Below, piece by piece: positions 20,847 to 62,326 of a stretch of 64,000 nucleotides of DNA. A program made the position numbers and the translations under genes. The notes under the pieces are model-generated. The model was not told where the DNA came from. It did not search any database and saw only the letters and a program-made list of their open reading frames with translations. The stretch spans positions 1 through 64,000 of the forward strand of contig JAUCBJ010003629.1 of NCBI GenBank assembly GCA_032718475.1, written 5' to 3'. This DNA comes from Nemertoderma westbladi. Lineage: Eukaryota > Animalia > Xenacoelomorpha. Numbering within the stretch: the first letter of the stretch is position 1; the number at the start of each line of letters is the position of its first letter.

Positions 20847-20884
<38 letters not shown>

Positions 20885-21141: not shown

Positions 21142-21176
<35 letters not shown>

Positions 21177-26835: not shown

Positions 26836-26847
26836 GTAACAGTTATA
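26836..26847 (+). promoter_or_regulatory. Non-tRNA PBS of B (GTAACAGTTATA), complementary to LTR motif 26085-26096
   Basis: Abuts the LTR CA end. Exact 12-nt reverse complement of TATAACTGTTAC in the LTR. Confidence 0.72.
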
Positions 26848-34188: not shown

Positions 34189-35637
34189 ATGACGGAATTG
34201 ATAGAAGATGACCTTGGTATTAGAGAGCGATATACTCTACCTTTACAAGCGTTTGTGGATAGTTTGATACGCGGTGAAGCCGATCCGACTATTACGGAGG
34301 ACGATGGTCGTTATATCGAACCGCCGATGTCCCAGGAACAACTTACGCGTGAATTGGACTATAGAAAATTCACCACTCGCTATACGAATCGTAATGGTAC
34401 GAATATGGACTTCTTAACTACCGGCCATCCTATCGATTTACATGATACGGACGATGTATACACCGAAAGGGAAATGGTTCTATTTAAATATCATACCCAG
34501 CGGAGTCGTAACGATAAACCGAGAATAGATCACGAAAATTATATTCGTAACAGACTGGGAAGACGAACCAATATGCCTAGAATCTGAGGAGATTCAGCCT
34601 ATCGCGCCCGGAACAGCGACAACGATTACATCCTAGAGTGGTATCAAGGTCCACAGTGTCTCACTGCGTACGATTATCGCCATGCCAACTATGTTTCTCG
34701 GCAACGTTGTCGGTTATGCGCATCGAGAGACCATGTTACGCCCATGGACACAAACGTCCGCTGTTCCTACTTCCACGAACAACTGACGATGGAAATTTAT
34801 TGCGCGTATTACAGACTCAATAACTTGCACATTTTTGCGGTTTGCCCTCAATTTATGACTCGATGCCATCATTGTCAATTAAAAGGACACGCCAGCTTTG
34901 ATTGTCCCTTTAACCATGATTTAGAGAGCGTAGATGAAATGATTGTACTACGTTATATCAGAGCTTGGGAAGCGAACGCTGATTTACATTGTGATTCACG
35001 CCATCGCTATTATCCTGGACGCGCTTACGAAGGAGTTTATGCGTTCCATCCTTATTTGTTTGCCTCCGTCGAGCAGAAATCGCGCCTATCAAGTTATGAA
35101 CTATTGAAGCGCGTTGGAGAATGTATTTCAACCAAATATGTACGCAAATTCCTCAGGAGCATTAATCCGAGTGACATCAATTCGTATAACTTAATAAACT
35201 TTATCCGTCAAGATCCGGCCTATGGAGACTTATTTGTCAACTCACACCCCGAGTTACAGGAAGTATATCGACGGCCTTACGAGTACAGAGCCCGCGAACG
35301 TGAGTTGGAAAGAACCATTAAACCAAGGAAGTTTCTAACTGCCTATGGTCCACCCACGGCCCTCGTTCAGACCACTCGTAAAGGACCCGTAAGAGCGGCT
35401 GTCTTGAAACGAGCTCTCAAAGCCGTTAGACCCCTCTCCCCGGACGTTGATGTTAATCAACCCGGTACTTCGACCGGCGGATATACCGATCGCAATCCCA
35501 CACCTTCTGATGCAATCATATTGCACCCTTCACCCAGGAGTTATAGCCCTCCTCGTAAAGTGGCTCGCCCCAAAGAGAAAAGGACTCTTGCTAGCTTTAA
35601 AAAACTGCGTAAACGCCGTCCGCGCAAGAAAGACTAA
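34189..35637 (+). pseudogene. Third ORF of B: zinc-knuckle protein homologous to the C-terminal part of ORF3 of element C; one in-frame TGA
   Basis: ORFs 34189-34587 and 34744-35637 share a frame and are separated only by TGA at 34585-34587. The joined reading gives RCRLCASRDH, HIFAVCPQFMTRCHHCQLKGHASFDC, AWEANADLH and a basic C-terminus. Confidence 0.75.
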
Positions 35638-35715
35638 CTGTTTAGAGTATTTTTATATTTTAGAAACTGTGATTTTGTATATTTTATAGACTTAAATCCC
35701 ATTTTCTGGGAGCGG

Positions 35716-36898
35716 TGTAAAAGCTTTTGTGGGATAACTGATACGTTTGCCTTTGCTGGCCAGTTCCCCCCCAGTCGCTAGAATACTCTCAAAGGGATTT
35801 ATAACTAAAATAGTGCAAGCTACCGGCTTATTGGCTGATGTGCTGTACGGAGATATCTGGGCTCAGTTTAATCGGCCAACTAGCCTAGAGAGGTTGCCTA
35901 AGCCTTGCTGTCCGTGTCGGCCAATAGAATTTGCGTAGGCGTTGATTTCGACCTATCCCAGCGCTACTGAACTGAATTTCCTATCTCTATGCTCATCCTC
36001 TGTGTTGAACGGGAGCTTCGTGGAATAAGGGAGTTGGTATCTTCGTATAGAGCAGTAGTCACATGTTTCTGTTGTTGTGTTCCCATTTTTCGCCATAACA
36101 CCGGCTTTTGGAACAACTCTAGCAAAAACTGCTTAGATTATAGAAAGTATAACTGTTACCGGCGGTGTTACCTCACTTAATTTAACTGCACTAATCATAT
36201 TGTTTGTACTGCTATTTACCGTCAGTTATTAATTGTATCGATTTGTTGATGAAATATTGTCATTTGGAGAATATTGATAAATCACCCAAATTTCCCAATT
36301 TCTTGATACACTACAGGTTAGAGAGACAGGCTATATATAACAATTGCGATTTATATCAATGTGGTGCGTATTGAATCTAATGTTATTTAGTAGACACTAC
36401 CTGAGTCAATTGCTGTTCTCTTTATGTGTGATCAAATATACTGACGGTCGGCAGAATAGTGTGCATGATTGTGAGTGTGATGTGACTGGTAACAAAGCAT
36501 TTCCTAAAGAATGCGACTTATACTTTAATCATAAGCCTTATCGTTGCGTTTAGTATAAGTCCTAGCTCTGTTTAAATAGATAGAGCGCCACGTCCTAAAG
36601 GAACTGTTAATATTTCCCGAAAGCCAATAATATCTGTCAGAAATTAATTAATAACGATCTATCGAATAATACAGTAAGTTTACACTGCAACCTTACGCTG
36701 CAATAATAAAATTTAAGCAGCCGAATTCAGCCTCCCGGGTGTAGATCCATCGGGTGAATGATCGCGCATGGGCTGACTTCGGGTAATGTTTTGTATATTA
36801 GCATAAAATATTGTCGTATGCTAAAGGTGTTTTAATTAACTAAAAGACATATAAATTTTGGCAGGTTAAACTGCTAAAGGTCTTCAAAAGCGCGAACA
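35716..36898 (+). repeat. 3' LTR of element B
   Basis: Direct repeat of 25653-26835. Confidence 0.95.
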
Positions 36899-37738: not shown

Positions 37739-37759
37739 TATGTATGTACTACCCACCAA

Positions 37760-43778: not shown

Positions 43779-43851
43779 CGTTCAGAATTATCAAACCAAA
43801 CACATTTTTTATAATTTTGACATTTTTTTTACTTGTACTTTTCATACTGGG

Positions 43852-46030
43852 TGATAAACAACCGCGACCTCTATACTAACAGCAGAACTGTTGAACAGAC
43901 CAATACCCGTTAATATCCTTCTGCCAACCTAATAAGTTCTCGTCTAACCAATAAGACACAAAGACTGCTCTACTGTTAAGTAAAGGGGCTCAGGAGCGTG
44001 ATATTACTAAATTGTAAGGGTTGCTAAATACAAACCGCTACTTACCGTTAGATGGCGCTAATCTGCCGTCCGCTAATATATTTTACTAAATTTACACAAC
44101 TCCTGCAAAATCGCTTGTTCCTTTCTCTACCGATTGCTCGATAGAGAGCTAACTGTTCGAATCTATGAGCCACGCAGGAATAACCAAAACAATAAACCCG
44201 AGTCGGCTCCCTAAGCTTACTTAAGACGAGTGCGAGAGGCCTTGCACTCAGAGTATTCTTACGCCTAATTCTATCACTATTAAAGCACGCTATTACCTAC
44301 GTCTTTCTAATCGCGAATACTGGAGGTTCCCTAACGTAATGTGTGAATGCGAGAATATTTAAAATATCAAAATGGTACAGTATCTGTTTCTACGTGGATA
44401 ATACCACTCCGAGTCTAAAACTGCCCGCGACTGGCTTTAGGCCAGCAAAATTACTAGCGTATCGTGCGTACCGAATAGTGCGTTCTAGCTGATTGCCCGC
44501 TAATGCAAATAACCGCTCAGCGTGAATAGTTTACAGTACACTAATTATTACCTTAGCTACTCTCCGCTATGCTGCGTACTAATTCTTAATTTTTTACTAA
44601 TTAATTACAGTCACAAATATTTAACAGCGTACTAATTACTAAGAGTTCCAGAATACGTAATTCTAATTTATCACGCAACAGGTTTCGCTAGTAATAGCCT
44701 AAATTGCCGTATTACTTTGACCTAATCAATAACTAATTATTGTAACTAAGAAATAGAAATCAATCAAAGGAAAAAGAGCGCCTATCTAAGCATTCGTAAT
44801 CTTAGGCACACTTCAATAACACACCAATCAGCGTTAGAAATCACAGTTTACAATTGTGCAATTCACTACTCGTACTCCACACTCAACGTTGCAACACGCG
44901 CAGGCCTCTCCCGGGTACATCTAGGATTCCTAACTAACCCAATTCCTGCCCCCCTAATACTAAATAGAGACAAAACCTGGATCATCAGCCCCCTAGATAC
45001 TGTACCGGCGATCGGTCTGCGTGCCGCAGTGTAAGATACCCGCCCGCAACGGTGACCCTGGCCAGCGTTGCCCGCTTTGAATCCTCCGCTCTCTCCTAGT
45101 CGCTCAACCCCCCGATGCGCCCACCGCCCACTGGCACCTTAGCCCTCCATGATGCTAATAGCTACCGTAGCGGCGCATGCAAATCACAAAGTCTGACAGT
45201 CTCAGGAATCCCTTGGGATTATTGCGCAGAAAAGAATCACATAGAACCATCAATCAAAGGTAGAAATCATAGTTCGATTGTAATTTGCAGTAATCGAAGG
45301 AATTATTGAGAAACACAAGCAAAGTAATCGTACTAGCAAATCATTCCAAGAAATTAATCAAAATTAGCAAATTGCAGAAAATACGATATCCTAATACAAA
45401 ATTAGAGACAGCTCAGCAAGTAAATTGTAACAGGGGTGTGTCATGTGATAAGGCATGAACATATGAACAACAAAAGGCCCTACCGGCACACCGCCAATTT
45501 ATAGATGATCCCGATGGGGTGATGCAATAAGGTGACTCAATCGCTCTCCCATTGGCTCTCCAGTCCATGCTAGCATTAAACCAACCTGGAAGCAGTTAAT
45601 CCAATAAGGAGACCGGATTGTAGCCCTATGCCCTCAAATTATTACCATATATGGTAATGGATCACGTCTCTGGCTGCTGAATGGCCAGGACAGCGTCCCT
45701 ATATGCTAGCCCTATCAAACTAATATCAGCAAGCACAAAATCCAGGGTCCGAGTAAACTCGCTACCCTGGAACTATCTACATATATCCTAATACAAAATT
45801 ACGTAGGTAGGGCTACATACTATACAAAATGAATGGATGCAAAATATATGGGCGTTTTAACTTCCTTACCTAAATGTCACCACACTGCGCCTTATCTAAA
45901 TAATTATACTGCACAACGGACTAATATTACGTACAGTATAACGGACTAATACTGCATACTGCATAATGGACTAATACTGCATACTGCATAATGGACTAAT
46001 ACTGTGGATACAGCGCCATATACCGTAACA
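43852..46030 (-). repeat. 3' LTR of element C
   Basis: Direct repeat of 60148-62326; I noticed about six substitutions. Confidence 0.95.
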
Positions 46031-47704
46031 CCGCTCCAAGGGAAATCATATAATGTTTCCCTCCAATTGTAGAAGAGTATAAGGTGATGTATACAAAACA
46101 AAATAAATTTCTTCCAACCAATCTAAATAACATAATAATTCTACTATTTACAAATATTGCCATAGATATTGCATAATGAATTACATACAAATTAAATTTA
46201 CAAAATATTATCTCTCTCACTGTTTAACGATTATTACATACAAATTAAATTTACAAAATATTGTTTCTCGTTCATTCTTACTACATAATGATTACTACAT
46301 ACAAAATCAAATATAAAAATTTTGCTAGGGCAAGTGAAAGGAGTAAGCCAAACCCGCAGGTTTGTCTCCCCAATCACTTCCTTCGCCTCTTTCATAATAT
46401 AAATTCAAATAACTCAACTAGTGTATCGCTTACGTCCTTCTGGGCTCCTCCCCGAGGCGCACCCACGAGGCGGACGTGTTTCCACCACCCCTGGGGCCAG
46501 TCTGACTGATGTTATTATCAGACCGGGCCGGGGGATGGCCCGATGCTTCCCGGGTTCAATTTTCAATTCCCCGATCACACCGGCACAGCTCGTCGAACGT
46601 GTAGCCAGATGGGCGGCTACTGTCAACTTACTGTGGCCTGACTGTACATTGAGCCAACTCAAAGTATAACAAAGAGTCAACCGGCAGGTGGACCAGTCGA
46701 TAGCGATCAAGCACCAAGGTCACCCCTGGGCCTAACCGACGGTCTTGTCCCAAGTGGGCTTGCGCTACCCAACATTGGAATTTTGACACGTTTTCACCTG
46801 CCTCGCCGGCAGTATTGAGGGGACACCGTTCCTCAACAATACTGACTAGCTCGAAAGCTAGGAACAAGTAACCACTTACCCGTCCTGTACACGTGTACTC
46901 AACAGATGTTCACGAAATCAAGTACACTACGGTAAACACAAAATCTGACACATACCATGCACACACAGAGACAAAATCGGGTAAGACAAAATCGGGGTCA
47001 AATCAGAGGGGACAAAATTGTATCGACTCATAAGAGCCGAGAGTACCTTATTTTGCCGTCAGGGCAAAATAACTTTGTGTGCACAAAGTATGCAAGGGCG
47101 CAGTAAAATATGGTCCTACTAATACCAGTGGCGACTGAGCCAACTGGCAAGGTTTCCCACACTCACTCGCAGTGGCCATACACACAATCACGTGTACTCA
47201 CGTACCCACAGCAACAGAAAACTCAAAGGCCCAAACAAATCCCAAAAACCAATCAGCTGAACATGGAGACAATAACATATAGTATCAAAAAAACGGAACA
47301 GCTGATGGCCAAAGGAACCCATCCGAGCCCCAAGCAAACTGCCACTGATCGCCCACATACAAAACCACAGTTCACACCACATGACACCACAAATCACACC
47401 ATGCCACCACCCCTACTGTGTACAGGACTGGCAGTACGGCAACATGCCGACTAGACGGAACCACGGCACCATGGCAATTCATGGTTCGCTAGACACGAGG
47501 GCCATCAGTATCTCCCTTGCACTTAGACTAGTGTTTAACGTGCCCCCAGACCCTCACGAGTCCGCCGCCGCCTGTTACTCGCACCCCTATAGAGACCTCA
47601 CCTCTTTAGGTACGAGTCTAGTCGAAAATTTTCAAATGCTACAATATACATCAGAGCGACGATGATGTATATATCTAGAGTCTGTCGCCCTGTGCCATAA
47701 TGTA

Positions 47705-50700
47705 TTATCGACCCGCTCCTGGGTTCTTTGGGCTCGCTCCTCTCTTTCGTCCCCTTCCCAGATACACTAATCTACCTCTAGTCGACTCCGTTGACGGCGT
47801 CCGTGAGGCGTCACTCCCCGGAACCGACGACGACGTTCCCTGAGCCCCGACAGATTCTCGGCTCGAACTTCTCCCTCGGCCTCGTCCCAATTGTCGCGCT
47901 CCTGTGGTCGCTTCCGCCAACTCTTCCTTCTGCAGTTGCACACGCGCTTTCTCAGACGCCCCCTGCGCCTTGCGCTGCAACCGTTGAGCTTCTATAATGG
48001 AGTGGTAGTGGTCGTCCTTGACTTGACGCTTGTCTTGGACCCCTCCTCCTGGTTCCTTCCGCGAGCCTTGAGCTCCAGCGGTCGTCGCTGTGGTCGCTGC
48101 GATCCTTTGTTCCTGTATCCTCTCGGCGGTCAATGAACCCACTGGCACATGAGTCAACAAGAATTCGTTGCGGTATTGTATAGCCGCCATCCTCCAATCA
48201 CCTCGCGCGCGTACCACTTTTCTAGTCTCCGTAAATACACCCTTCGTGATGCGATCGCAAATAGCAACGAAGTTCCATGTGTACTTATTGTCCATGTTCA
48301 ATTGTCTGAAGTATTCTCGGACTACGATAACTCCAGTGTTCTGTGGAAGGTCTTGAGCAGTTAGGATGAGCTCCTGATATTGTGGTAGCGATTGAAGATA
48401 TGGCTCGTACGCAACATGCGATGGGTCTACCGCCCAAAACCCATATCCCGCTTTAAATGGTAACCAACGCATCTGCGCTTGAATATGGTAATCCGCCACA
48501 CTCTCCCACTTATCTAACATCTCCCGAAGTAGGTTAGCGCTATGGTTTTGAAAGGAATCATCTCGCAGCTGACATCTCGCGCTACGATGTCCTTTTACTC
48601 CACAATATCCACATTGAGAAATGAAGACGGTGCACGTGTGAAACGAATGGTCGGTCTCATTGCACCAACGACAGACCTTATGCGCCGCCTCTATTACCGC
48701 GTCGCACGACTTTAGATTGTGCCTTGTGCTGCCGCACAATTTGCACCTACGCGCTTGTGGAAACCAGGCCCTCTCGTATATGAGGTCTCCAATCGGTTTC
48801 GCACTTCCTTCCTTCCCAATGTCTAATACGATGTCGTCCTCTCCGGTCAACGGTTGTCGATCCGGAACAAAGTAAACATCCTCGCCCTTGTCCTCTATCT
48901 CCAATATTTCCTCCCGCGTTCGTTTCGGATATGTCTTCTCCACCGGAAGATCTACTCCGAACACCTCTACTAACGTTTCCGGCCAGCCCTCCTTAACAGG
49001 TCTATCAGCCTCCGAGTGGAAGGGAGTACCAAACCCGCGGGTTTGATTCCCGAACCACTTCTCCAAAGCTTCTGGCGTCGGATATTCCATCGACGGTCGG
49101 TCTCCCAAATCTCCGATGTTCTGTCGATATACTCCTTCGAATATCGCTAATCCTCTCCTCACCATCGACGTATTCTCTAACGATTGGTTGAAGAACTGGG
49201 TTAAGAAACGCTTCATCATGTCGGATTGGATTCCCCCTTTCGAGCGAACGTATTGATCTCCTCCGAATACCAATGGATGACGCTTCAAAACTCGCGCAAC
49301 GATATCCGCTAATAAACAAGTCACCGTGTTCGACTCAAGCACCAAATAATATTGTAGCGACGCACGGGGTGGCGCGCAAATGTTCCAATACACTAACGCT
49401 TGCCGCTTGAAGTGGGATTTGAACTCCGCTCCCGGTGGCGTGTTGTATTCGCCATACGCCTCCTCATACTTCTTTTGCGTCTTTAACTTAAAGTCCCAAT
49501 TATACAACAAGTGTGCTATAAAGCCCATACCAGTCTTGGCAGAGTTGGGATACTCCCTATAAATTCCAATATCCTGTGCCCATAGCAACAATAGCTTGGT
49601 GTCGACAAACGGTCTCGGCAATCTATCTTCCAGATCAGTCATGGCGTTGAAGTCGCTCTCCAAATCGCTCTGGACTCCCGATCCCACCTTGACGTAATCT
49701 TGGTTGAGAATAGCCTCTCTAACTTTCTTTGGTAACATCCTGGCGTCGATACGCTCCGCTCCGTGCATACCTCCTCGCCTGCATACCTCCAAAATCTGTT
49801 CCCTAGGATCCTTCCCCTTCCGATATTGTGTCGTTATGATGGGCTCCGGTCTCTCTCGATCCGCCCTCACACGCATAAACACATGAGTCACACCATCGGC
49901 CGCACGAATTTGAATACACTTGCTGGTCAAACATTCCTGATGGGACCCTCCTTCATTGTCGTAGAACATCACTCTCCAATCTTGCAGTGATTCCTCCGTT
50001 TTCCTCCACTGACGCTGAATCTCATCTGATGGGGTCCACATGCGCTCGATCGCCTTGTGGTCATCATATCGGGTATAAGAACCCTTCCTCCTCAGCCACG
50101 TCTGGTCTACTTCCTCGTCATCTGGGAATGTAGCCACCGCGACCCATACCTTGATGTACTTATCCAACCATCCGAATAGTTTGCTCTCCTTCCCCGGAGC
50201 TCCAATCTTATCTAACGTGTCGTAATCTGTGATCTGCATTGGGACATCACGCAAGAACTTCGCGCATAAAACTTCCCGTAGACAGTCAACGTTCCAATGG
50301 TCCGCCATTCTTACCATCGGCAAGAATCGTATCGCTTCTCGCGACTCCGGATGATCTACTAATATCGCAGGTTCGGTGCCGTCGGAATAATACACCGGTC
50401 CGGGTTGAGATACGACCTGTGGAACAAATCCGGTCACTCTCCTCGTCTCCTCTTGATGTCTATCCGCGGTCTTATTATACTCCGCTATCCTGTTCTCAAA
50501 TAACTCTTTCGCCTTCGCCGCTCGCTCCTCCTGCCGCAACGCGTCTATGTCGTCCTGATGCTCAGGCGTGAGGCTTCTCACTCGGTGAGGTGAAGTAAAC
50601 GTAGTCCAGGGACTCGAGAGCTCCAAACCCGCGGGTTTGGTACCCGAGTCCCGCGCCGCTTCGCGCCGCGCCTCTAGATCCTTATAGGCTCGGTACAGCG

Positions 50701-51412
50701 AAATGGCCGCTGCCGTCTCTATCAAACTGGGTGTCGAACAGGGTTTAATCTCCGTATACGGATCTAATGTCGTAACGGTCGGCGTAATGGGTCTCGGAGG
50801 TCGCTTTCCGCTGAAGTCGATACTGATCATCGGGTTGCTCATCGGGTAACCTCCCTCGTTGTATCTAAGGAATTGGTGAGCTGGACATCGCGTTAATATC
50901 GGTTCCGGATGTTGCTCGTCTAATCGGTCGGGAATCGCCATGTCCTGTTTATTCATGCATTCACCACACTTGTAGAAGAGCTTGTATACGCTGAAGACTT
51001 TCGGCGTCTCCTGATCCTCGCCTCGAGTCCTCCGATACAGATGCATTCCGTCGAACTGGTCTCGGACTGCAGGTAGAGGCTCCTCGTGTCGTAAATACAT
51101 ATTCATATGGTATAGTCGTGCGATTTCCTCGTCCGGATCTGCGCTAATGTCACACACGTCCAAAGCGAAGTCGTAGGGATACCGCGTGCGATACTCTCTC
51201 CGCAAGACTTCCATCCGGTCCCCCAACGCTCTCATTCTTTCTCTCCGTAATTCTTTATCATAACTTGGTTTATACTTCCCGTTCAGCTCCATCACAGACC
51301 GCCCATGGTAGTAAACGTTAGAGTCTTTACATCCTGGTCGCGTGAATGGTAGCTCCGCCTCCTCTCTGGCAGTAAATCCTCTGCGCGGTTGCGCTCTAAT
51401 ATCCCTCTCCAT
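47705..51412 (-). CDS. ORF3: 1235-aa protein with a DEDDy (WRN/EXD/mut-7-like) 3'-5' exonuclease-like domain and three CCHC zinc knuckles
   Basis: ExoI-like VMFYDNEG, CIQIRAADG, LPKKVREAILNQDYVKVGSGVQSDL (ExoII-like), FVDTKLL, KTGMGFIAHLLY and ExoIII-like W....P....YYLVLE. Knuckles CKLCGSTRHNLKSC, CRWCNETDHSFHTC, CGYCGVKGHRSARC. Basic RG-rich tail. No signal peptide or TM segment apparent. Confidence 0.75.
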   Translation of the reverse strand: MERDIRAQPRRGFTAREEAELPFTRPGCKDSNVYYHGRSVMELNGKYKPSYDKELRRERMRALGDRMEVLRREYRTRYPYDFALDVCDISADPDEEIARLYHMNMYLRHEEPLPAVRDQFDGMHLYRRTRGEDQETPKVFSVYKLFYKCGECMNKQDMAIPDRLDEQHPEPILTRCPAHQFLRYNEGGYPMSNPMISIDFSGKRPPRPITPTVTTLDPYTEIKPCSTPSLIETAAAISLYRAYKDLEARREAARDSGTKPAGLELSSPWTTFTSPHRVRSLTPEHQDDIDALRQEERAAKAKELFENRIAEYNKTADRHQEETRRVTGFVPQVVSQPGPVYYSDGTEPAILVDHPESREAIRFLPMVRMADHWNVDCLREVLCAKFLRDVPMQITDYDTLDKIGAPGKESKLFGWLDKYIKVWVAVATFPDDEEVDQTWLRRKGSYTRYDDHKAIERMWTPSDEIQRQWRKTEESLQDWRVMFYDNEGGSHQECLTSKCIQIRAADGVTHVFMRVRADRERPEPIITTQYRKGKDPREQILEVCRRGGMHGAERIDARMLPKKVREAILNQDYVKVGSGVQSDLESDFNAMTDLEDRLPRPFVDTKLLLLWAQDIGIYREYPNSAKTGMGFIAHLLYNWDFKLKTQKKYEEAYGEYNTPPGAEFKSHFKRQALVYWNICAPPRASLQYYLVLESNTVTCLLADIVARVLKRHPLVFGGDQYVRSKGGIQSDMMKRFLTQFFNQSLENTSMVRRGLAIFEGVYRQNIGDLGDRPSMEYPTPEALEKWFGNQTRGFGTPFHSEADRPVKEGWPETLVEVFGVDLPVEKTYPKRTREEILEIEDKGEDVYFVPDRQPLTGEDDIVLDIGKEGSAKPIGDLIYERAWFPQARRCKLCGSTRHNLKSCDAVIEAAHKVCRWCNETDHSFHTCTVFISQCGYCGVKGHRSARCQLRDDSFQNHSANLLREMLDKWESVADYHIQAQMRWLPFKAGYGFWAVDPSHVAYEPYLQSLPQYQELILTAQDLPQNTGVIVVREYFRQLNMDNKYTWNFVAICDRITKGVFTETRKVVRARGDWRMAAIQYRNEFLLTHVPVGSLTAERIQEQRIAATTATTAGAQGSRKEPGGGVQDKRQVKDDHYHSIIEAQRLQRKAQGASEKARVQLQKEELAEATTGARQLGRGRGRSSSRESVGAQGTSSSVPGSDASRTPSTESTRGRLVYLGRGRKRGASPKNPGAGR

Positions 51413-52169
51413 TATGTTACGCGTATATACATATATATATATCCCAATAAGTGCCGTTACGTAACCAACTACACTGTGGGTAAATCAGTTAGATGTCGCC
51501 GAAAGACAGACCTCCCGAACCCCCCCGCCTTCCAGCAGTTCAGGTTCGACTCTCTAGATCCCGTCTCTTCCTAACTAACTATCCTCTAACCTATTCCCAT
51601 GCATAGCGCAAAAACTTTGGAGATAAACTGGCCGTGACCAACTCACTTTTTGATGCCCAAACTACTCCCATTACTCGTACTAAACTACAGTAGTTAGAAA
51701 GGACCATAGCCACAATACTCGACTATACCAAACCCACAGGTTTGATAATCGAACATCACACATCCTGCAAACTACTGAGTGGGGTCCGTGCACGCCTCTG
51801 GTGCTACTAACCTTTAGCACCTTAGTTGCACTGTTGGCACCAATCTGTGGAAGTTGCTAAACTCAATTTACACTCCTACGTAATATAGCCGTCACCATGG
51901 TTTCTAAATGCTATTTTCCAGGCTTCACGACTTTTCAAATTACTGTTTATCTATAGACGAATTCAAAAACGCGTCTATACACAGCGTCTGGAATTGTCTT
52001 GGGTTCACTTCTAATTTTTAAAATTTTAAATTTTCCAAAATTTTTGAAAATAAAATTTTGTTTTGATACCCACCAGACAAAACTCAACGCAAATCACCAC
52101 AACCCCGCTCCTATGCATTTCCTTGTATTTGCATACGAGGAATGCATACGAAGTGAGTTGCGTCCAACA

Positions 52170-53657
52170 CTAATTCAGTTTTGAGGCAGGAGACAAATTA
52201 TAATCTCCCGTCTCGATACGTGTCTCCTCTAATAACACGATATCTTGGACCGGTCGGTCCAAGGTGTGTAAACCATTAGTTTTACACTTTTTTGGGTGCG
52301 GACACTTGCACCTAATTTTCACAGTGACTGTGCGCACTATGTTTTGCACGTCTGGGTGTGTGTGCAAGATCACTCCTGTCTCCCAATACTTTCTCTTGAC
52401 AATGGGTTCGGTTATCAACACGTAATCTCCCCTTTGGAGACTCCGAACCGTTTTGTACCACTTTGTTCTGGTGGATATGGTGGGAAGATAGTATTCCCGC
52501 CAATATTCCCAGAATGTGTACGCCACTAACTGTGTTACTTTCCAGCTCTTACGACTATATAGGTCGGCACTAATGGGTTCTGATGCCGGCACAAGAAATG
52601 CTGGACTCTGCATTAGCAAATGATTCGGCGTTAATGCAACACCGTCTGGCAACATAGCTATCGGCCTCGAGTTTAATGTATGCTCGATTTCAATGAAAGC
52701 TGTGACCAGTTCGTCGTCGGTAAGTTGTTTGTTCACAGGCAATGTTTTGGCAATGGCCTGCTTTACAGAGCGAACTAAACGCTCCCAACTTCCTCCTCTC
52801 CAAGGACTTTCTGGAGTATTAAATCTCCACTCTACTCGTTGCGGCAAAAGTGCTGCAGAAATTTCCTTATTCTGTGCTGCTTTATGAGCCACGTTCAACT
52901 CGCTATTCCCTCCGACAAAGTTTGTACCCTTATCGGAGTAGAACGCCTTTACTAGTCCTCTCCTGGCCATAAATCTCTTTAAGGCCAGGAGCAGAGATTT
53001 AGTCGACATGTCTGCCACACGCTCGATGTGTATGGCTCTACTCGCCATACATGTCAGTAGCAGACCCCATCGCTTGTGGGTCAGCCGTCCACTCTTTGCT
53101 TCAATCGGACCAAAACAGTCCACCCCTGTGTTCATAAAGGGTGGGTCATATGCCTGTACTCTCGCTTCCGGGAGTTCAGCCATCTCCTGTTCCAATACTC
53201 TGGCGTTCACTCTCTTGCAAACCAGACAGGCGTCGTACATAGTGCCTACTGCCCTGCTTGGCTGCAATAGAATGAATCGCTGTCTCGCTGCCGACAAACA
53301 GTGTAACCTTCCCGCGTGATGCAACCTCTTATGTATATCCCATAGAATCGCTCTTTGCAATTCCATTGGGTGACTAGGGATTATCACTGGGAACCGAAAC
53401 TGTGAGTTTATGTCGACAGTCTGGATTCTCGATCTATGACAAATTAAACCCTTATGGATTAACGGACTCCATTTTCTAAGGGGTTTATAGAGAACTGGTC
53501 GTTGAGCCGATAATAGATGGAATTCTTTCGGGAAGGCACACATTTGATAATGTTTCAAATGCTTTAATTCCGCTTGATCAATCTCATCCTCTGTCAGAGG
53601 TTGTTTCAATTTCCGAATTCGCTCACTATTGGTGCTCAATGGTTCTCTCAAATGTTT
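52170..53657 (-). CDS. pol: Integrase portion of pol (in frame with RT-RH, separated by one TAG)
   Basis: HHCC (HKRLHHAG...CLVC), GVDCFGP, YSDKGTNF, GGSWERLVRSVK, LTPNHLL, and the Pao C-terminal W..G....HP..VRTV..RPVQDIVLLE. Confidence 0.92.
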   Translation of the reverse strand, partial: KHLREPLSTNSERIRKLKQPLTEDEIDQAELKHLKHYQMCAFPKEFHLLSAQRPVLYKPLRKWSPLIHKGLICHRSRIQTVDINSQFRFPVIIPSHPMELQRAILWDIHKRLHHAGRLHCLSAARQRFILLQPSRAVGTMYDACLVCKRVNARVLEQEMAELPEARVQAYDPPFMNTGVDCFGPIEAKSGRLTHKRWGLLLTCMASRAIHIERVADMSTKSLLLALKRFMARRGLVKAFYSDKGTNFVGGNSELNVAHKAAQNKEISAALLPQRVEWRFNTPESPWRGGSWERLVRSVKQAIAKTLPVNKQLTDDELVTAFIEIEHTLNSRPIAMLPDGVALTPNHLLMQSPAFLVPASEPISADLYSRKSWKVTQLVAYTFWEYWREYYLPTISTRTKWYKTVRSLQRGDYVLITEPIVKRKYWETGVILHTHPDVQNIVRTVTVKIRCKCPHPKKCKTNGLHTLDRPVQDIVLLEETRIETGDYNLSPASKLN

Positions 53658-56600
53658 CTAATGTTTTAAACAAAGGTACGAAACGTATCGGCTTAACCAC
53701 GCAGTTCTTTTACAAATTGTCAGCCAAGAGGCAGACGAATTTAGTAATTTGTCATAAATACTGCATGACTCTAATGCCAGCGACGGTTGTCCGCTAACTA
53801 ATGGAAGTTTCGAATCCAAACCCGCAGGTTTGGAAACCAAAGGATCCATTATGTCGGTCATTTTCTGTCCGTCACTTACCAACTGTGACTCCGGTTTAGT
53901 CTGTAAGGGTGGTTTTATGTCATAACTTACCCTTCCTGACCTAGTAGTCACGTAAGTCTGTTGGTCTGACAGGTCTCCGGGCCGCTCCAATGACTCTTCA
54001 GGCCGCTCCAATGACTTAAGTTTGGCTTTAGACTTCGACTTAGAGACTTTCTCCACCTTGACTTCTGCATCTTCAGGCATCGGATTGGTCACTATCTTTA
54101 GTCGCTCTGGCCAATGTTCCTGTGTCCTTGTTAGAAAATCAGGTCCATGCAACCAAAACTCCTGCGACTCTTCCCGACAGAATTCCGCCGGCATTGCACC
54201 TCTCGAAGTTATGTCGGCCGGGTTCAACACTCCCGGACAATGTCTCCATTGTTCCTTCGTCGAAAAATCAACGATCTGAGCGCGTCTATTGGCCACAAAT
54301 GTCTTTAGTGCAATATTGTCGGCCGCAATGTATACTAACACCAAGGATGCGTCCGTCCAATAGAATAAGGTCAATGTCGTGTCTAACTCCTCTGTTATCT
54401 GCTTACTTACCTCGACTGAAACTACAGCCGCCTGTAACTCTGCACGAGGGACAGTCATGTATTTGACCGGCATTGTCTTTGATCTAGAAGTCACAAAGGC
54501 CGTCTCAAACTTGTCGTGACTTACCTCTCGGCGAAGGTAGGCTACCATACCAAAGCCGGTGTCACTTGCGTCACTGAATAGATGGAGTTCGAGATCAGCT
54601 GGGAATACCAGCTGATTCGGAAAGTAGGAACGGGGTACTTCTATATTTTTCAATAGATGCAACTCGGCTTCCCACTCCCTCCACTGCTTTGCATGTATAG
54701 GAGATATTGGTTCGTCCCACTCTAAGTCGGACAACCAAATTTTCCTCATGCACGCTCGTGCCTGTAATATTACCGGACTGATAAAGTTCATCGGGTCAAA
54801 TAGTCTACTTAAAGTCGATAAGCAAATTCTCTTTGTCAAAACTTTGTCTGGGCTACTGGGCTCAAATCTAACTCTTACCTGGAACTTATCCGAGTTCGGA
54901 TTCCAAGCGAGTCCCAGTACTCGCGCCATGGGGATTGGTTCTACCCCCAATTCTATGTCTCCGCTCCCGCGATCTTTTACCGGGAACGATTCTAATAGGG
55001 CCTCCGAATTAGTAGTGAACTTGGTCAGAGGAAATCCCCCTGTAGCCAAGCACTCTTGCAGGCCGTGAGCCACTTCTATGGCTTGTTCCGCTGTGTCCTT
55101 GGACACCAATCCGTCGTCCATATAGAAGTTTCTCAAGATGGACTCGATTACTTCTACTGGGTACTTACCAATCTGGGCTGTTGCCGTTTTCTTTAGAACG
55201 AACAGCGTGCCATTCGGACTATCGCGGGCGCCAAATATCCTAACGTACATTTGGTATGTAACCACTGGGCCGGATAAGTCTTCATTCTCAAACCAGAGAA
55301 ATCGAAGGCTATCCTGGTCTGCCTTACAGGCTCTTACCTGGTGGAACATCGCCTCGATGTCACAAGTAAATGCGAATCGCCGCTGTCTAAAACGCAACAG
55401 TATTCCAATCAAATAGTTATTCAGGTTGGGACCATCCATCAACTCTGAATTCAGGGACATACCTCTATAGACTGCTGCGCAGTCGTTGACTACTCGGACT
55501 TTGTCTGGCTTGTCAGGGTGAGTCACATAGTGGTGTGGAAGGTAATAAGTCTGGTCTGTCACTAAGTCAGGGTCCTCTACCTTCCCAGCAAATCCCTTGG
55601 CGAAATAGTTGTTGATCTGGGCGCAATACTTCTCCCTAATGTCCGGATTCTTCAACAACCGAGCCCTTACTCCGTTTAATCTTTTCAAGGCTAAGCTGTA
55701 GTTGTTCTCCAACTTAGGTGGTTGTCGACGCCACAACATTCCAACTTCAAAATGTCCAGTCGGTAGTAGACGTATGGTGTCTTCCATCATCTCCAACGAC
55801 CGTTTTTCATCAGTAGACATGGCTAGGTCATATCCACCGGGTTCCATTGCGTCCCTATCCAGCCATTCGACAGTTCTGGCTCCTGTCTCGAGGTCCTGGC
55901 GTATCAATTCCTTCTGTAATTCCTCCTCACTGTATTGGAAAATGTCTAGGTCTCGATATTTAGCCACTTGACCCTCCACTATGTCTGTATAAGTCAAAAC
56001 GTTAGTCAGATAAGTAGCGTGGGCCGCTGAACCAGACCCACGGGTCTGATAACAGTAGTCCTCGGGTTCACTATCTGTCCGGTCGTTGTGAAGCGGTTCC
56101 GACAACCTAACATTATCGGGAATCAACTCCTCGTCCGACTCGCTAAAGTCACTATAGTGGTCAATACAGGTTCTCCTAAACTCGTCTATGTCTGGTGGTT
56201 CTACTAACGGTGGTTGAGTTATAGGCTGTAATTCATCGTATCTGTCCATTGGCTTGTCGCCACCTGTAAACTCATAAGACATAGGTACTCGTGTATACCA
56301 ACCTAGTATAGTCCTATGGGCATGTGGTCCATTGACATGCGGCTCAGCTGGTCTCGTTTCCCATATCTGGTGTGCGATCAGCTGTTCTGCACCAATCAAC
56401 ATAGAAACATTCCTATAACCTACCTGATGTCTCGGTATTCTGAGCTTGTCAAAATACTCCTGTGCTATGGGACTCATCGGCGGCACCTTACCTAACTGCC
56501 TGCCGAATCCCTTCATAGCTAGACACTTACATCCGTCCAATGGCAAAGCTTTCCGTTCTTGTCGAGTGTGTTGGTCTCTCGGAAGTAGGGAATCTAGTTC

Positions 56601-56700
56601 TACCGAAATTCTGTGTCCCTTGAGGTCACCTACTCCGTGCATAGACTTCAACTCTATTTGGATCTCCTCGGCGTCCTGGAAGGACGCCGAGCTTGTCTCT
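53658..56700 (-). CDS. pol: Pol: protease C-terminal half, RT, RNase H
   Basis: YLPHHYV, KVRVVND, DIEAMFHQV, FGARDSP, FYMDDGL, RVLGLAW, LHLFSDAS, VPRAELQAA, YWTDAS, NPADITSRG. Confidence 0.93.
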
Positions 56701-58723
56701 CATATGATCCCTCTTCCGGTTTAACCCGGAAGTTCTCCGCCGAACTGGGTCGGCGCTCCGTCCGCGTATTCCAAACCCGCGGGTTCGGTTCGCCAAATAC
56801 TCGGCCCGTCGGAGTTTCTTCTCTAAATTCTCCGTTGTCACGTTCGGTATACAGTGGTGCGGCGTTCCGATGACGTAGATCCTGGGCGATGGGTGAAGCA
56901 CTAATACCAACTGGCGTGCGATATGTAGAGAACGGTTTAACGATCCGTGTACTCGTAATAGCTGGACCGGGTATAGGAATTCTGGTCGTCGTTGACTCGC
57001 GTATAGTCGGAGTTCTCGCTTCCTGTTCGGCCTTCTGCAGTGCGAACAGTTCTCGCAACTCTGTCCCCACACTCGCCCCACATTCTTCGAGCATTCGCAT
57101 CCCCTTCTCGGCGATTTCGTTCGCCTTCCTAGTCCGTTCTTCGCTCTCTAAACTTAATCTCGCACTTTCCAACTGCGCCAGTTTACGCTCTTCTTCTTCC
57201 CTCGCTCGTCTCGCTGCGCTCTCTTCTTCCACTCGCGCCTTTTCTTCATACAATGCGCGTCTTCTTTTCTCGATCTCGAGTTCGCGTTCCTTGCGTCCGC
57301 GTTCGAGTTGAAGCTCGCGCTCCTTCTGTTCACGATCGAGTTTCTTGCGCTCGCGTTCGGCTTGGAGTTCGCGTTTCTTCGCTTCCTGTTCGCGTTCGAG
57401 TTGGAGTTCGCGTTTCTTCGCTTCCCGTTCGCATTCAAGTTGGAGTTCGCGTTTCTTCGCTTCCCGTTCGCATTCGAGTTGGAGTTCGCGTTCTCTCTGT
57501 TCGCGTTCGAGTTCCTCGCGCTCGCGCTCGGCTTGGAGTTCACGTTCCCTTTGCTCGCGTTCCGCTCGCTCGCGCTTACTTATCTCTTCCAACTCTCGTA
57601 ACTCTGCGTCCAACTTACGTGTGCGCTCCCGTTCCCGCTCGGCTTCCTTCCGTGCTTCCTGTGCACGCAAAACTTCCGCCTGCTGTTCGTCTAGTCGGCG
57701 TCTTCTCTCCTCCGCCGAGTTGTGAGAAACAAGGGATCTAGCACATATTACCTTACCTCGCGCGTGACTAACCTGGGAATCGCCGCTGTCTCTAGATGCG
57801 TCGTCGGGTGGAGTCAACGTCCTCTGTTGAATGTTCTCCGTCGTCGGTAGCACCTGGCCTGGTACCACCACTCCATTCTGCATCAGCCAGCTAGTAACTT
57901 CCCTCTGATAACGGCGCTCTTCCTTATCTTGGATCTCTTCTCGCTCCACTAACTCTCTCAACTCTGCGTCACTCACTTGAGTCGCCTGCGTTTGTGATGC
58001 CCATAGCAGCCAGTTCTCCGTCCTAACTCGTCGGAATCGCTCCGATAACTCGCGGTGCTCTAACAAGGCTGCTAAAACCCTGTCGTAAATCCTCGTTGCT
58101 ACGTCGCTCGACTGAGACTCTACTGCCTTCTTCGCTAGGACTGCAAGCTCCTCTGTCTGCTTGAATAACGCTGAGTTATATCCTCTTCTAATCTCTACTA
58201 ACTCTACCCTCCCGATGTTCGCTGAATCAGCTAACATCTTCCTTACCTTGTCCGCCGTCCGAGTTATATGTCCGGCATGCGCGCGAAGTTTCTTCTTTAT
58301 CGCGATATCAAGTTCTCTCTCGCTCACCTGACTTACGCTCGGTGGACTTGAAGGATTATTTCGGGAACTACGGGTACTCCTAACAGCCGTCGGGACCACG
58401 GCACTTACCATACCCACAGGTCTGGAAACCGGGCTCCGGGCTCTCGCTTCTGCTACACTACCCTCCCTATCACTCACCTCTGTCCGGGTTGCTGTGCAAT
58501 CCTTCCTTACGGTAGCGGTAGGGGATCCTAATACTATTACCTGAGGCTGCTGTTCTTCCTCACTAGTCACTGTCTCGTCCTCCTGTTCACTTACGTCAGC
58601 GTCACTCGCTGCGTCGTCATAGTCGGCATTGTCATCAACAGTAATATTTACGCTATCGTCAGTCGGCGGTCCGGCCGCCGTCTCATAGCTGTCCTCTAGT
58701 GCCTCTTTGTCTGAGACACTCAT
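56654..58723 (-). CDS. gag: Gag N-terminal half (acidic N-terminus, long E/R coiled coil), lacking capsid and zinc-knuckle regions
   Basis: 689-aa ORF in the gag position with 11-aa repeats KKRELQLECEREA. No DUF1759-like or CCHC motifs before pol. Confidence 0.75.
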   Translation of the reverse strand: MSVSDKEALEDSYETAAGPPTDDSVNITVDDNADYDDAASDADVSEQEDETVTSEEEQQPQVIVLGSPTATVRKDCTATRTEVSDREGSVAEARARSPVSRPVGMVSAVVPTAVRSTRSSRNNPSSPPSVSQVSERELDIAIKKKLRAHAGHITRTADKVRKMLADSANIGRVELVEIRRGYNSALFKQTEELAVLAKKAVESQSSDVATRIYDRVLAALLEHRELSERFRRVRTENWLLWASQTQATQVSDAELRELVEREEIQDKEERRYQREVTSWLMQNGVVVPGQVLPTTENIQQRTLTPPDDASRDSGDSQVSHARGKVICARSLVSHNSAEERRRRLDEQQAEVLRAQEARKEAERERERTRKLDAELRELEEISKRERAEREQRERELQAEREREELEREQRERELQLECEREAKKRELQLECEREAKKRELQLEREQEAKKRELQAERERKKLDREQKERELQLERGRKERELEIEKRRRALYEEKARVEEESAARRAREEEERKLAQLESARLSLESEERTRKANEIAEKGMRMLEECGASVGTELRELFALQKAEQEARTPTIRESTTTRIPIPGPAITSTRIVKPFSTYRTPVGISASPIAQDLRHRNAAPLYTERDNGEFREETPTGRVFGEPNPRVWNTRTERRPSSAENFRVKPEEGSYERQARRPSRTPRRSK

Positions 58724-60136: not shown

Positions 60137-60147
60137 GCGCGTATTAC
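60137..60147 (-). promoter_or_regulatory. Non-tRNA PBS of C (GTAATACGCGC), pairs with LTR motif 61187-61197
   Basis: Abuts the LTR end ...TTTATCA. The minus-strand LTR motif GCGCGUGUUGC pairs over 11 nt with two G.U wobbles. Confidence 0.55.
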
Positions 60148-62326
60148 TGATAAACAACCGCGACCTCTATACTAACAGCAGAACTGTTGAACAGACCAAT
60201 ACCCGTTAATATCCTTCTGCCAACCTAATAAGTTCTCGTCTAACCAATAAGACACAAAGACTGCTCTACTGTTAAGTAAAGGGGCTCAGGAGCGTGATAT
60301 TACTAAATTGTAAGGGTTGCTAAATACAAACCGCTACTTACCGTTAGATGGCGCTAATCTGCCGTCCGCTAATATATTTTACTAAATTTACACAACTCCT
60401 GCAAAATCGCTTGTTCCTTTCTCTACCGATTGCTCGATAGAGAGCTAACTGTTCGAATCTATGAGCCACGCAGGAATAACCAAAACAATAAACCCGAGTC
60501 GGCTCCCTAAGCTTACTTAAGACGAGTGCGAGAGGCCTTGCACTCAGAGTATTCTTACGCCTAATTCTATCACTATTAAAGCACGCTATTACCTACGTCT
60601 TTCTAATCGCGAATACTGGAGGTTCCCTAACGTAATGTGTGAATGCGAGAATATTTAAAATATCAAAATGGTACAGTATCTGTTTCTACGTGGATAATAC
60701 CACTCCGAGTCTAAAACTGCCCGCGACTGGCTTTAGGCCAGCAAAATTACTAGCGTATCGTGCGTACCGAATAGTGCGTTCTAGCTGATTGCCCGCTAAT
60801 GCAAATAACCGCTCAGCGTGAATAGTTTACAGTACACTAATTATTACCTTAGCTACTCTCCGCTATGCTGCGTACTAATTCTTAATTTTTTACTAATTAT
60901 TTACAGTCACAAATATTTAACAGCGTACTAATTACTAAGAGTTCCAGAATACGTAATTCTAATTTATCACGCAACAGGTTTCGCTAGTAATAGCCTAAAT
61001 TGCCGTATTACTTTGACCTAATCAATAACTAATTATTGTAACTAAGAAATAGAAATCAATCAAAGGAAAAAGAGCGCCTATCTAAGCATTCGTAATCTTA
61101 GGCACACTTCAATAACACACCAATCAGCGTTAGAAATCACAGTTTACAATTGTGCAATTCACTACTCGTACTCCACACTCAACGTTGCAACACGCGCAGG
61201 CCTCTCCCGGGTACATCTAGGATTCCTAACTAACCCAATTCCTGCCCCCCTAATACTAAATAGAGACAAAACCTGGATCATCAGCCCCCTAGATACTGTA
61301 CCGGCGATCGGTCTGCGTGCCGCAGTGCAAGATACCCGCCCGCAACGGTGACCCTGGCCAGCGTTGCCCGCTTTGAATCCTCCGCTCTCTCCTAGTCGCT
61401 CAACCCCCCGATGCGCCCACTGCCCACTGGCACCTTAGCCCTCCATGATGCTAATAGCTACCGTAGCGGCGCATGCAAATCACAAAGTCTGACAGTCTCA
61501 GGAATCCCTTGGGATTATTGCGCAGAAAAGAATCACATAGAACCATCAATCAAAGGTAGAAATCATAGTTCGATTGTAATTTGCAGTAATCGAAGGAATT
61601 ATTGAGAAACACAAGCAAAGTAATCGTACTAGCAAATCATTCCAAGAAATTAATCAAAATTAGCAAATTGCAGAAAATACGATATCCTAATACAAAATTA
61701 GAGACAGCTCAGCAAGTAAATTGTAACAGGGGTGTGTCATGTAATAAGGCATGAACATATGAACAACAAAAGGCCCTACCGGCACACCGCCAATTTATAG
61801 GTGATCCCGATGGGGTGATGCAATAAGGTGACTCAATCGCTCTCCCATTGGCTCTCCAGTCCATGCTAGCATTAAACCAACCTGGAAGCAGTTAATCCAA
61901 TAAGGAGACCGGATTGTAGCCCTATGCCCTCAAATTATTACCATATATGGTAATGGATCACGTCTCTGGCTGCTGAATGGCCAGGACAGCGTCCCTATAT
62001 GCTAGCACTATCAAACTAATATCAGCAAGCACAAAATCCAGGGTCCGAGTAAACTCGCTACCCTGGAACTATCTACATATATCCTAATACAAAATTACGT
62101 AGGTAGGGCTACATACTATACAAAATGAATGGATGCAAAATATATGGGCGTTTTAACTTCCTTACCTAAATGTCACCACACTGCGCCTTATCTAAATAAT
62201 TATACTGCACAACGGACTAATATTACGTACAGTATAACGGACTAATACTGCATACTGCATAATGGACTAATACTGCATACTGCATAATGGACTAATACTG
62301 TGGATACAGCGCCATATACCGTAACA
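60148..62326 (-). repeat. 5' LTR of element C
   Basis: Starts TGTTACGG and ends GTTTATCA on the minus strand. Short 25-bp tandem repeats near the U3 start (~62240-62300). Confidence 0.95.

Follow-up and report, generated by a model that had tools for sequence, protein, structure and literature searches.

Why would a retrotransposon carry an exonuclease gene in the env position? The question is raised by an open reading frame, ORF3, that lies between the integrase and the 3' LTR of an LTR retrotransposon in a 64,000-nucleotide stretch of Nemertoderma westbladi DNA (contig JAUCBJ010003629.1, positions 1 to 64,000; the window). Genes of this kind have a precedent in bdelloid rotifers, where DEDDy ORF3s are found in the gypsy-like Juno1/2 and Vesta2/5 LTR retrotransposons and in Athena/Terminon (Rodriguez et al. 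2017, PMC5408684). The roles proposed there, 3' processing and silencing, are the same two considered here, and the present case extends the precedent to the BEL/Pao class.

A BEL/Pao element and its third gene

The carrier, element A, was assigned by Pfam matches and LTR comparison to the BEL/Pao LTR retrotransposons; it occupies 18.5 kb of the minus strand and has the following parts:

60148..62326, minus strand: 5' LTR, 2179 bp, TG...CA
60137..60147, minus strand: primer-binding position, first bases not TGG
56654..58723, minus strand: gag remnant without capsid domain, knuckles or protease; junction near 56694
53658..56699, minus strand: Pao-type RT (YMDD) and RNase H; Peptidase_A17, E 2e-39
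52170..53657, minus strand: integrase with DUF5641; a single stop divides it from pol
47705..51412, minus strand: ORF3, accessory gene with an undamaged frame where env would lie, 1235 aa from ATG
43852..46030, minus strand: 3' LTR, six mismatches relative to the 5' LTR
43847-43851 and 62327-62331: 5-bp target duplication, CCCAG

The class is defined by pol, and the pol of element A contains Pao-type RT, RNase H and integrase in gypsy order by Pfam (with matches to DUF5641, E 2e-17, and Integrase_H2C2) and is 35-38% identical to two other BEL/Pao pol genes. Element A shares with the Belpaoviridae this RT-RNase H-integrase arrangement, TG...CA LTRs and a target duplication, but is 18.5 kb long rather than 4.2-10 kb, has LTRs of 2.18 kb rather than 0.2-1.2 kb, lacks the TGG primer site of the tRNA-Arg/Gly type (in that family, an 18-nt site for the 3' end of tRNA-Arg or -Gly), and carries a third gene that is not env (PMC8742986). 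The initial annotation had left the class unnamed. It had described gag and pol of this copy as damaged, and indeed in the gag frame Pfam and motif inspection reveal neither a capsid domain nor knuckles nor a protease motif, and a stop falls between RNase H and integrase. Position 56694 is the point at which the contigs of other copies depart from the window sequence. The family is young and high-copy: 22,315 contigs of one sequencing run match the internal region of element A, with mutual similarities between less than 90% and more than 99%. Run X4, possibly from RNA, covers gag, pol and ORF3 alike and is uninformative on expression or splicing.

ORF3 begins 758 nt past the integrase stop and ends 1675 nt before the 3' LTR, and its intact 1235-aa frame on the element's strand has the coordinates originally reported. 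The absence of env hallmarks was likewise confirmed: there is no R-x-K/R-R furin site, and the best 19-residue hydropathy is 1.34, with no transmembrane anchor. The gene can be divided as follows:

50051..51412, minus strand: residues 1-454; most of the variants listed are silent
49277..50050, minus strand: predicted DEDDy-type 3'-5' exonuclease domain, residues ~455-712 (D485, E487, D583, Y689, E693)
48572..48745, minus strand: three CCHC zinc knuckles, CX2CX4HX4C
48263..48550, minus strand: conserved but unnamed domain that follows the knuckles, with the family motif FE-x-F-AD-x-G ... W/G-F-F

The three knuckles had been placed correctly in the initial annotation, and the conserved domain that follows them had been overlooked. 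An RG-rich tail had also been reported; RG dipeptides are present but modest in number: the final 65 aa contain five of them, and RGG does not occur there. Pfam gave no match for residues 1-454, and the ESM Atlas no usable match for residues 1-440.

Fold, selection and relatives of ORF3

Residues ~455-712 are predicted to fold as a DEDDy exonuclease. The family profile matches EXD2 (E 9e-8), the closest cellular relative by sequence, and aligns D-x-E, VG-x-G/D, DT and Y-x3-D onto the motifs of EXD2 and WRN; the motif order of WRN/EXD/mut-7/Egalitarian-type enzymes had been read from ORF3 beforehand, at the positions where these motifs fall. The ESM Atlas returned PF01612 clusters at 0.91 for ORF3. 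The predicted structure (mean pLDDT 69, pTM 0.69), when modeled as the exonuclease alone, superimposes over the whole domain on DEDD nucleases, with Z of 12.0-12.7 and rmsd of 3.2-3.7 across 168-182 residues. The top matches to this model are all DEDD nucleases: the apicoplast DNA polymerase, fly and mosquito Nibbler, NrnC-type nucleases, RNase D and WRN. Both ORF3 models have Nibbler near the top of their matches; in the exonuclease-only model it is tied within 1 Z unit with the polymerase, NrnC, RNase D and WRN domains, and such ties do not single out mut-7/Nibbler, EXD1 or Egalitarian as its specific kin. Other searches were less productive. The Pfam search that had been proposed as a check of the domain returned nothing for ORF3 at E<=1 and a weak PF01612 match (E 0.2) in one of eight homologues; word-seeded protein searches with ORF3 found nothing; Foldseek with a low-confidence 631-aa model gave no match at E<=0.001; and the sole matches of a single-sequence PDB search, to rotavirus VP4, were spurious.

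The acidic positions of the predicted active site are kept, one of them with a substitution. The Exo I D-x-E and the Exo II Asp are present as D485, E487 and D583, and in an alignment that left out one homologue (P0001), D485 and E487 recur in 8/8 covering rows and D583 in 9/9, at 17-22% identity. Exo III reads Y689-x3-E693, with the Tyr kept and Glu in place of Asp, just as first noticed. Each of the nine aligned proteins has D (six) or E (three) at this position, and Glu is the state of the element's own family. We consider it probable that the predicted exonuclease is catalytically active.

ORF3 is present across the large family and is under purifying selection. Among the variants listed, 22 of 27 are silent over the whole of ORF3, as are 10 of 13 in residues 24-410, 32 of 40 around the exonuclease (about 31% expected) and all 17 at sites with a share of 0.1-0.95. 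The window also contains element B, of another BEL/Pao family, whose corresponding position holds a homologous gene. Element B retains the capsid and knuckles of gag and the protease, has lost most of pol to deletion and is non-autonomous; a third element, C, is related to B, their LTRs being 64% alike:

25653..36898, plus strand: element B, second BEL/Pao family, 1183-bp LTRs with two mismatches, TSD TCCTG
34174..35637, plus strand: ORF3 of element B, knuckle region and downstream conserved domain, one in-frame stop
6334-5139, minus strand: LTR of element C

The two ORF3s match by tblastn (E 1e-11) and by a profile (A2, E 4e-13). The exonuclease was not detected in the ORF3 of element B (exonuclease profile A5, no match), and its N-terminal part has no similarity to that of element A.

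Further afield, nine distant proteins share the layout of ORF3, including the conserved domain after the knuckles. The best sequence matches of the family run through the knuckle module, and P0001 combines a degenerate exonuclease with two copies of that module. A giant-virus knuckle protein (L001) was dropped, its similarity being confined to the knuckles. An RT-motif scan yielded no viral and three genome loci, two of them BEL/Pao; one, the ordinary BEL/Pao element L003, has LTR starts 6.7 kb apart and downstream DNA without ORF3.

The idea that ORF3 was captured recently from the host or a foreign source and does nothing for the element is largely refuted by these data. Host genes could be among the homologues, and the one genomic context readable among the nine, that of the ninth homologue, is a contig without pol; but the excess of silent changes across copies, the presence of ORF3 throughout the family, the homologue at the same place in element B, and the lack of any relative better than E 4.7e-12 among 1.84 billion representatives leave capture very little probability. 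A one-off capture and the lack of any DEDD-fold match had been named at the outset as findings that would undo the original interpretation, and on both points the outcome favoured it. We are nearly certain that ORF3 genuinely belongs to the element, as a gene with a DEDD fold that is maintained by selection.

Its nearest parallels are instructive. Like the rotifer ORF3s, it is a separate frame after pol in place of env, of DEDDy type, without a transmembrane segment and with one Asp changed to Glu (DEDE here, DEED in the rotifer paper; PMC5408684). Compared with the published description of the rotifer ORFs, it differs in its BEL/Pao carrier, in its length of 1235 aa, which includes an extended N-terminal part, the three CCHC knuckles and another conserved domain, and in the selection visible across copies. 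With EXD2, WRN, Nibbler/mut-7, RNase D, EXD1 and Egalitarian it shares fold and motif order, but structural-alignment identity is 6-16% and no single orthologue stands out. To our knowledge, none of these cellular DEDDy nucleases has such a knuckle-plus-domain tail. Trypanosoma brucei RNase D (PDB 7c42/7c45) does join a DEDD nuclease to a CCHC knuckle region, and it matches the family profile via the knuckles (E 2e-5) and the fold at Z 10.7; unlike ORF3, this RNase D is cellular, about 350 aa long and not part of a mobile element, and the shared layout is probably convergent.

Candidate targets in the element's own RNA

TGG is absent from the LTR boundary in elements A, B and C, although internal tRNA fragments may still serve as primers; Rfam and tRNA scans gave no matches. 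Pairing between the LTR and the primer site suggests self-priming:

26085..26096, plus strand: predicted self-primer of element B, 12 Watson-Crick pairs with primer site 26836-26847; 0/400 shuffles
5880..5890, minus strand: predicted self-primer of element C, 11 Watson-Crick pairs; 1/1000 shuffles
61187..61197, minus strand: candidate self-primer of element A, 11 bp including two G-U pairs

The pairings of B and C differ by two compensatory changes, and the sequence case that these two elements are self-priming is strong. That for element A is moderate: shuffled sequences did as well in 6/400 trials by energy and 14/400 by length, and in 70/3000 (p about 0.015-0.035). Excision of a 95-nt GT-AG segment (61191-61097) would give 11 perfect pairs, with a poor donor. 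In element A, no exact primer matches, and no matches near the TATAAA at 61799, were found. A primer assembled by splicing at consensus donors did not outscore shuffled sequences. Pairing of a 5' leader donor with the pol-ORF3 spacer is marginal (10/300 shuffles as good), and the weights used to score splice sites were approximate.

The arrangement resembles Tf1/sushi self-priming, in which an 11-12-nt primer site right after the 5' LTR pairs inside the LTR. Self-priming of the Tf1 type has been described in Ty3/gypsy elements, and some plant copia elements are predicted to use it (PMC6317226). For its self-primer, Tf1 requires no enzyme other than RNase H (PMC7175516). If priming here is Tf1-like, the primer would be the first bases of the transcript, released by RNase H. 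The literature searched, which excludes most subscription papers, yielded neither an exonuclease ORF3 nor self-priming for BEL/Pao.

A second candidate target is a set of eight hairpins with YGYG loops:

58408..58424, minus strand: hairpin 1, in gag
56771..56787, minus strand: hairpin 2, in gag
56032..56048, minus strand: hairpin 3, in pol; compensatory G-C pair
53816..53832, minus strand: hairpin 4, in pol
51728..51744, minus strand: hairpin 5, in the pol-ORF3 spacer
50623..50639, minus strand: hairpin 6, in ORF3
49029..49045, minus strand: hairpin 7, in ORF3
46348..46364, minus strand: hairpin 8, in the 3' spacer

They lie in three reading frames and were equalled in 0/100 shuffles, the YGYG pattern having been set only after the hairpins had been seen. 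Their covariation is no greater than that of shuffles (67-90/500), and no such array was found in element B. A knuckle of the RSV nucleocapsid binds a UGCG tetraloop, and a change of UGCG left the selectivity of whole Gag unaffected (PMC5035970).

What ORF3 may do for the element

Our tentative proposal, which we hold at somewhat less than even chances, is that the substrate of the ORF3 exonuclease is the element's own RNA. ORF3 would be expressed, probably from a spliced subgenomic RNA; its three zinc knuckles would likely hold the exonuclease on that RNA, perhaps by binding the YGYG hairpins; and the enzyme, acting on RNA rather than DNA, would trim single-stranded 3' ends back to duplex, most plausibly to finish a self-made primer for reverse transcription. 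DEDDy enzymes are known to trim structured RNA ends (PMC5408684). The cues that direct attention to the element's own RNA are the lack of a TGG site, the compensated pairing in B and C, the 11-bp candidate in A and the eight hairpins, and the primer-trimming idea of the initial annotation gains a basis because element A has no TGG-type site and its neighbours appear to be self-priming. Against it, element B appears self-priming with an ORF3 that has no exonuclease, which is indecisive since B is non-autonomous, and a trimmer is not required in the known case because Tf1 uses only RNase H. The hairpins could equally bind Gag. The modest self-primer match of element A and the degenerate exonuclease of P0001 also count against the proposal, and the occurrence of DEDD ORF3s in other retroelement classes suggests that the role is not tied to self-priming.

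A possibility ranked slightly lower is that ORF3 antagonizes silencing, by over-trimming or degrading piRNA/siRNA precursors or cleavage products or by competing with host Nibbler/mut-7/EXD1. The recurrence of Nibbler in both structural searches would fit such a role, but that match is tied with others and EXD2 is closest by sequence. In its host the family has reached a very high abundance, and DEDD nucleases are carried by retroelements of several classes (PMC5408684); yet the rotifer DEDDy ORFs have no clear link to copy number and are themselves covered by small RNAs. An arenavirus exonuclease serves immune evasion (PMC7968707). Everything that favours the antagonist role is argument by analogy. 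Rather doubtful is a weak or dead nuclease acting as an Egalitarian- or EXD1-like RNA binder that would package or localize element RNA, with the knuckles and the next domain as its working core. The Glu at Exo III, the knuckle-only ORF3 of element B, the degenerate exonuclease and doubled module of P0001, and the family's best matches through the knuckles all suggest it. Set against them is the retention of the acidic sites at about 20% identity (8/8 or 9/9, with the canonical Asp in 6/9), as catalysis would require, and rotifer ORFs with an Asp-to-Glu change were read as possibly active (PMC5408684).

Improbable, finally, is a proofreading or cDNA-end-trimming exonuclease for copying a long element, by analogy with nidovirus ExoN. 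Element A exceeds the size range of its family despite missing part of gag and the protease, and the ordinary element L003 has no ORF3, but this link of size to ORF3 depends on one control element. The exonuclease domains of family-A polymerase and WRN are tied among the top structural matches; ORF3, however, is a separate frame not fused to RT, and the copies are quite diverse. CCHC knuckles, which point to single-stranded RNA, also argue against this role.

What exonuclease genes do on retrotransposons is a question that dates from the rotifer report of 2017. The N. westbladi element supplies an intact, visibly selected gene in a young, high-copy family, together with a nine-member protein family whose natural forms include active-looking, Glu-variant and degenerate exonucleases as well as proteins that lack the domain, and the two concrete candidate targets in its own RNA, self-primer and hairpins, make the question directly testable in vitro. 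The fullest reading, which we regard as unlikely, is of a giant, tRNA-independent BEL/Pao clade whose exonuclease-knuckle protein docks on YGYG hairpins and trims a self-made, possibly splice-assembled, primer. If true, it would mean a new mode of starting reverse transcription and an undescribed, widespread protein family.

An accessory gene in a defective BEL/Pao element

The window holds a large LTR retrotransposon with a gene in the env position, and two further BEL/Pao copies related to each other:

62326-43852, minus strand: main LTR retrotransposon, 18,475 nt
51412-47705, minus strand: ORF3, an open frame of 1235 aa
25653-36898, plus strand: element B, LTRs of 1183 bp with 2 mismatches, TSD TCCTG
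1-6334, minus strand: element C, a BEL/Pao copy related to B

Pfam places the main element in the BEL/Pao class (Peptidase_A17, E 2e-39; DUF5641, E 2e-17; integrase zinc domain). Its LTRs begin with TG, end with CA and differ from each other at 6 positions, and CCCAG is present on both flanks. According to the ICTV profile (PMC8742986), BEL/Pao elements measure 4.2-10 kb, their LTRs span 0.2-1.2 kb and their primer site is one for tRNA-Arg or -Gly. The main element is thus roughly double that length, and its LTRs, at 2179 bp each, also lie above the given range.

The window copy is defective. The initial annotation had described gag and pol as damaged, and indeed the gag frame, examined with Pfam and for motifs, lacks a capsid domain, knuckles and any protease motif, and a single stop interrupts the coding sequence between RNase H and integrase. 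Contigs from three runs diverge from the window sequence at 56694. The gag remnant includes a long ERE/KRELQLE coiled-coil-like repeat (57130-57700, units of 33-39 nt). Three DNA runs include contigs that lack about 1.19 kb (46426-47614) of the sequence separating ORF3 from the 3' LTR, and thus a shorter-spacer variant exists in this family.

ORF3 is a real, selected accessory gene with a predicted DEDDy fold. It was found in six of the seven listed sequencing runs, five from one organism and one from a second. Contigs matching the internal region numbered 22,315 in run X1 and 10,034 in run X3; they range from less than 90% to more than 99% alike and cover 30 of 30 bins. Among the best 40 of 857 variants, 27 fall in ORF3, of which 22 are silent; the share expected by chance is about 31% (p 8e-8). 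Within 49150-50150, 32 of the best 40 of 103 variants are silent, including all 17 of those at a share of 0.1-0.95. The two lists overlap at six sites, and the counts refer to best-supported contig rows, as distinct from a codon-model dN/dS.

The frame was originally noted for its absence of env hallmarks, and it carries neither a transmembrane segment nor a furin site. Pfam gave no match to ORF3. A search of residues 372-1071 against 1.84 billion representatives matched 8 proteins at E<=0.001, and a profile built from four of these recovered a ninth. The homologues (514-734 aa each) have a common layout: an exonuclease-like domain is joined by a variable linker to three CCHC knuckles, and behind these lies a further conserved domain, which was not part of the initial annotation. 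One homologue, P0001, carries the knuckle module twice and its exonuclease is degenerate; another, P0004, lacks the first exonuclease motif. Genomic context is readable for P0001 only: its 3.7-kb contig, L002, contains no pol and terminates within the start of an acidic ORF that has no significant match to the gags of the window.

Element B retains a BEL/Pao gag-protease, with pol reduced to scraps. The ORF upstream of its 3' LTR shows homology to ORF3 over the knuckle region and the domain behind it (E 1e-11; profile E 4e-13), and the exonuclease profile does not match it; genes of the ORF3 kind therefore occur in more than one family, with the exonuclease as a separable module. No ORF3-type ORF was found in L003, one ordinary BEL/Pao contig with readable downstream DNA (35% identical in pol). 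L003 and a further contig, L005, are filed in bacterial MAGs and are likely animal contamination, because both carry BEL/Pao pol genes and L003 additionally has C2H2 zinc-finger arrays.

Element B is inserted inside one of the window's tandem arrays (6700-10600, 14300-16400, 17050-17750, 20300-21650, 36870-37800 and 41900-43800), which include a 32-nt satellite of 117 copies and produce long spurious open frames. Decayed frames at 17900-19300 and 38800-40030 are presumably fragments of non-LTR (LINE-type) reverse transcriptase.

The exonuclease domain

The DEDDy-type motifs first read from the sequence alone are borne out by profile and structure comparisons. A profile from 9 exonuclease domains aligned all three motifs and matched EXD2 best (E 9e-8), followed by Egalitarian (0.0013) and WRN (0.012). 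In the ESM Atlas, 25 of 30 matches fall in PF01612 clusters; the highest score is 0.91, and the 157 features shared are fewer than the 170 typical of family members. The predicted model (pLDDT 69, pTM 0.69) matches DEDD nucleases across its residues 1-262, with Z scores of 12.7 for the apicoplast polymerase, 12.3 for both Nibblers, 12.1 for RNase D, 12.0 for WRN, 11.6 for Exd1 and 10.5 for Egalitarian. Scores that lie within 1 Z of each other count as ties, so the comparison singles out no parent family.

D485, E487, D583, Y689, E693, minus strand: predicted catalytic positions of the ORF3 exonuclease

In the exonuclease alignment, from which P0001 was excluded, D485 and E487 are kept in all 8 rows covering both, and D583 in 9 of 9. 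The last acidic residue, correctly read at the outset as E rather than D, is E693; this site is D in six and E in three of the nine aligned proteins. Two high-depth contigs cover the E693 codon without a difference, and none of the five codons has a variant among the 40 listed of 103. E693 is the family state, not damage, and the predicted enzyme is likely to be active.

RNA signals and possible roles of ORF3

With rough weights, the leader upstream of gag contains a candidate splice donor (59265) that ranks second of 230 by score, and candidate acceptors at 51845 and 51474 lie upstream of the ORF3 start. These positions would fit a putative env-style spliced ORF3 message. The donor region (59238-59270) can also pair with the pre-ORF3 spacer (51815-51855), which would mask one candidate acceptor; the pairing energy is -42.9 kcal/mol, and by an ungapped score the match is marginal (10 of 300 shuffles).

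A 17-nt hairpin motif (stem CAAACC/GGTTTG, YGYG loop) occurs at 8 sense-strand sites in the main element, all between the LTRs (46348-58424); they are spread over gag, pol, ORF3 and the spacers, and fall in three reading frames. The pattern was defined post hoc, and none of 100 shuffles yields any match. All 8 sites fold, the loop G's are invariant and 92% of stem cells are paired; covariation in the stems is not above shuffles. Excerpts of PMC5035970 describe a UGCG tetraloop bound by an RSV nucleocapsid knuckle, and whole RSV Gag as insensitive to a change in that tetraloop. The hairpins are candidate packaging or protein-docking tags that ORF3 or Gag may read. On L002, one weak copy of the core motif follows P0001 (2463-2472; stem of only 3 bp; 1 of 200 shuffles).

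Our tentative proposal is that ORF3 would act as a knuckle-guided exoribonuclease on the element's own RNA. By analogy, ORF3 may be a silencing antagonist, which is possible if doubtful. The existence of exonuclease-less and degenerate relatives speaks for an adaptor, but the conserved acidic residues speak against one, and such a role seems unlikely. A proofreading exonuclease is very improbable. Rodriguez et al. (2017) report, in the portion of PMC5408684 consulted, DEDDy ORF3s whose motif reads DEED, in Juno and Vesta elements of rotifers as well as in Terminons, and propose two of the roles considered here, 3' processing and silencing; parts of a 2019 review (PMC6431247) restate this account. 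For BEL/Pao, the literature searched yielded no report of an exonuclease ORF3 or of self-priming, and excerpts of PMC3118150, PMC3601003, PMC6317226 and PMC7968707 mention neither.

Predicted self-priming of reverse transcription

The most plausible substrate of an ORF3 exoribonuclease would be the self-primer; in Tf1, the primer is released by RNase H alone (PMC7175516, in part). TGG does not directly follow any of the window's three 5' LTRs. In element B, LTR positions 26085-26096 are perfectly complementary to the 12 nucleotides just behind the LTR (0 of 400 shuffles), and in element C 5890-5880 pairs without mismatch with the corresponding 11 nucleotides (1 of 1000). The B and C primer sites differ at two positions, both matched on the partner side, and their LTRs are 64% alike. 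The best partner in the main element, 61197-61187, forms 11 pairs, 2 of them G-U (6 of 400 shuffles by energy, 14 of 400 by length). Excising 61191-61097, a segment with a poor donor, would build 11 perfect pairs at the same site (70 of 3000 shuffles; 25 of 3000 with introns of <=200 nt). In the leader at 59750-60150 the LTR-end/primer-site motif occurs three times, twice within a small hairpin, and this region varies in length among contigs.

These pairings argue strongly for self-priming of B and C and moderately for that of the main element. With pairings of 12 and 11 bp and compensation at two positions, elements B and C present a clean self-priming signal in a class that has been described as tRNA-primed.
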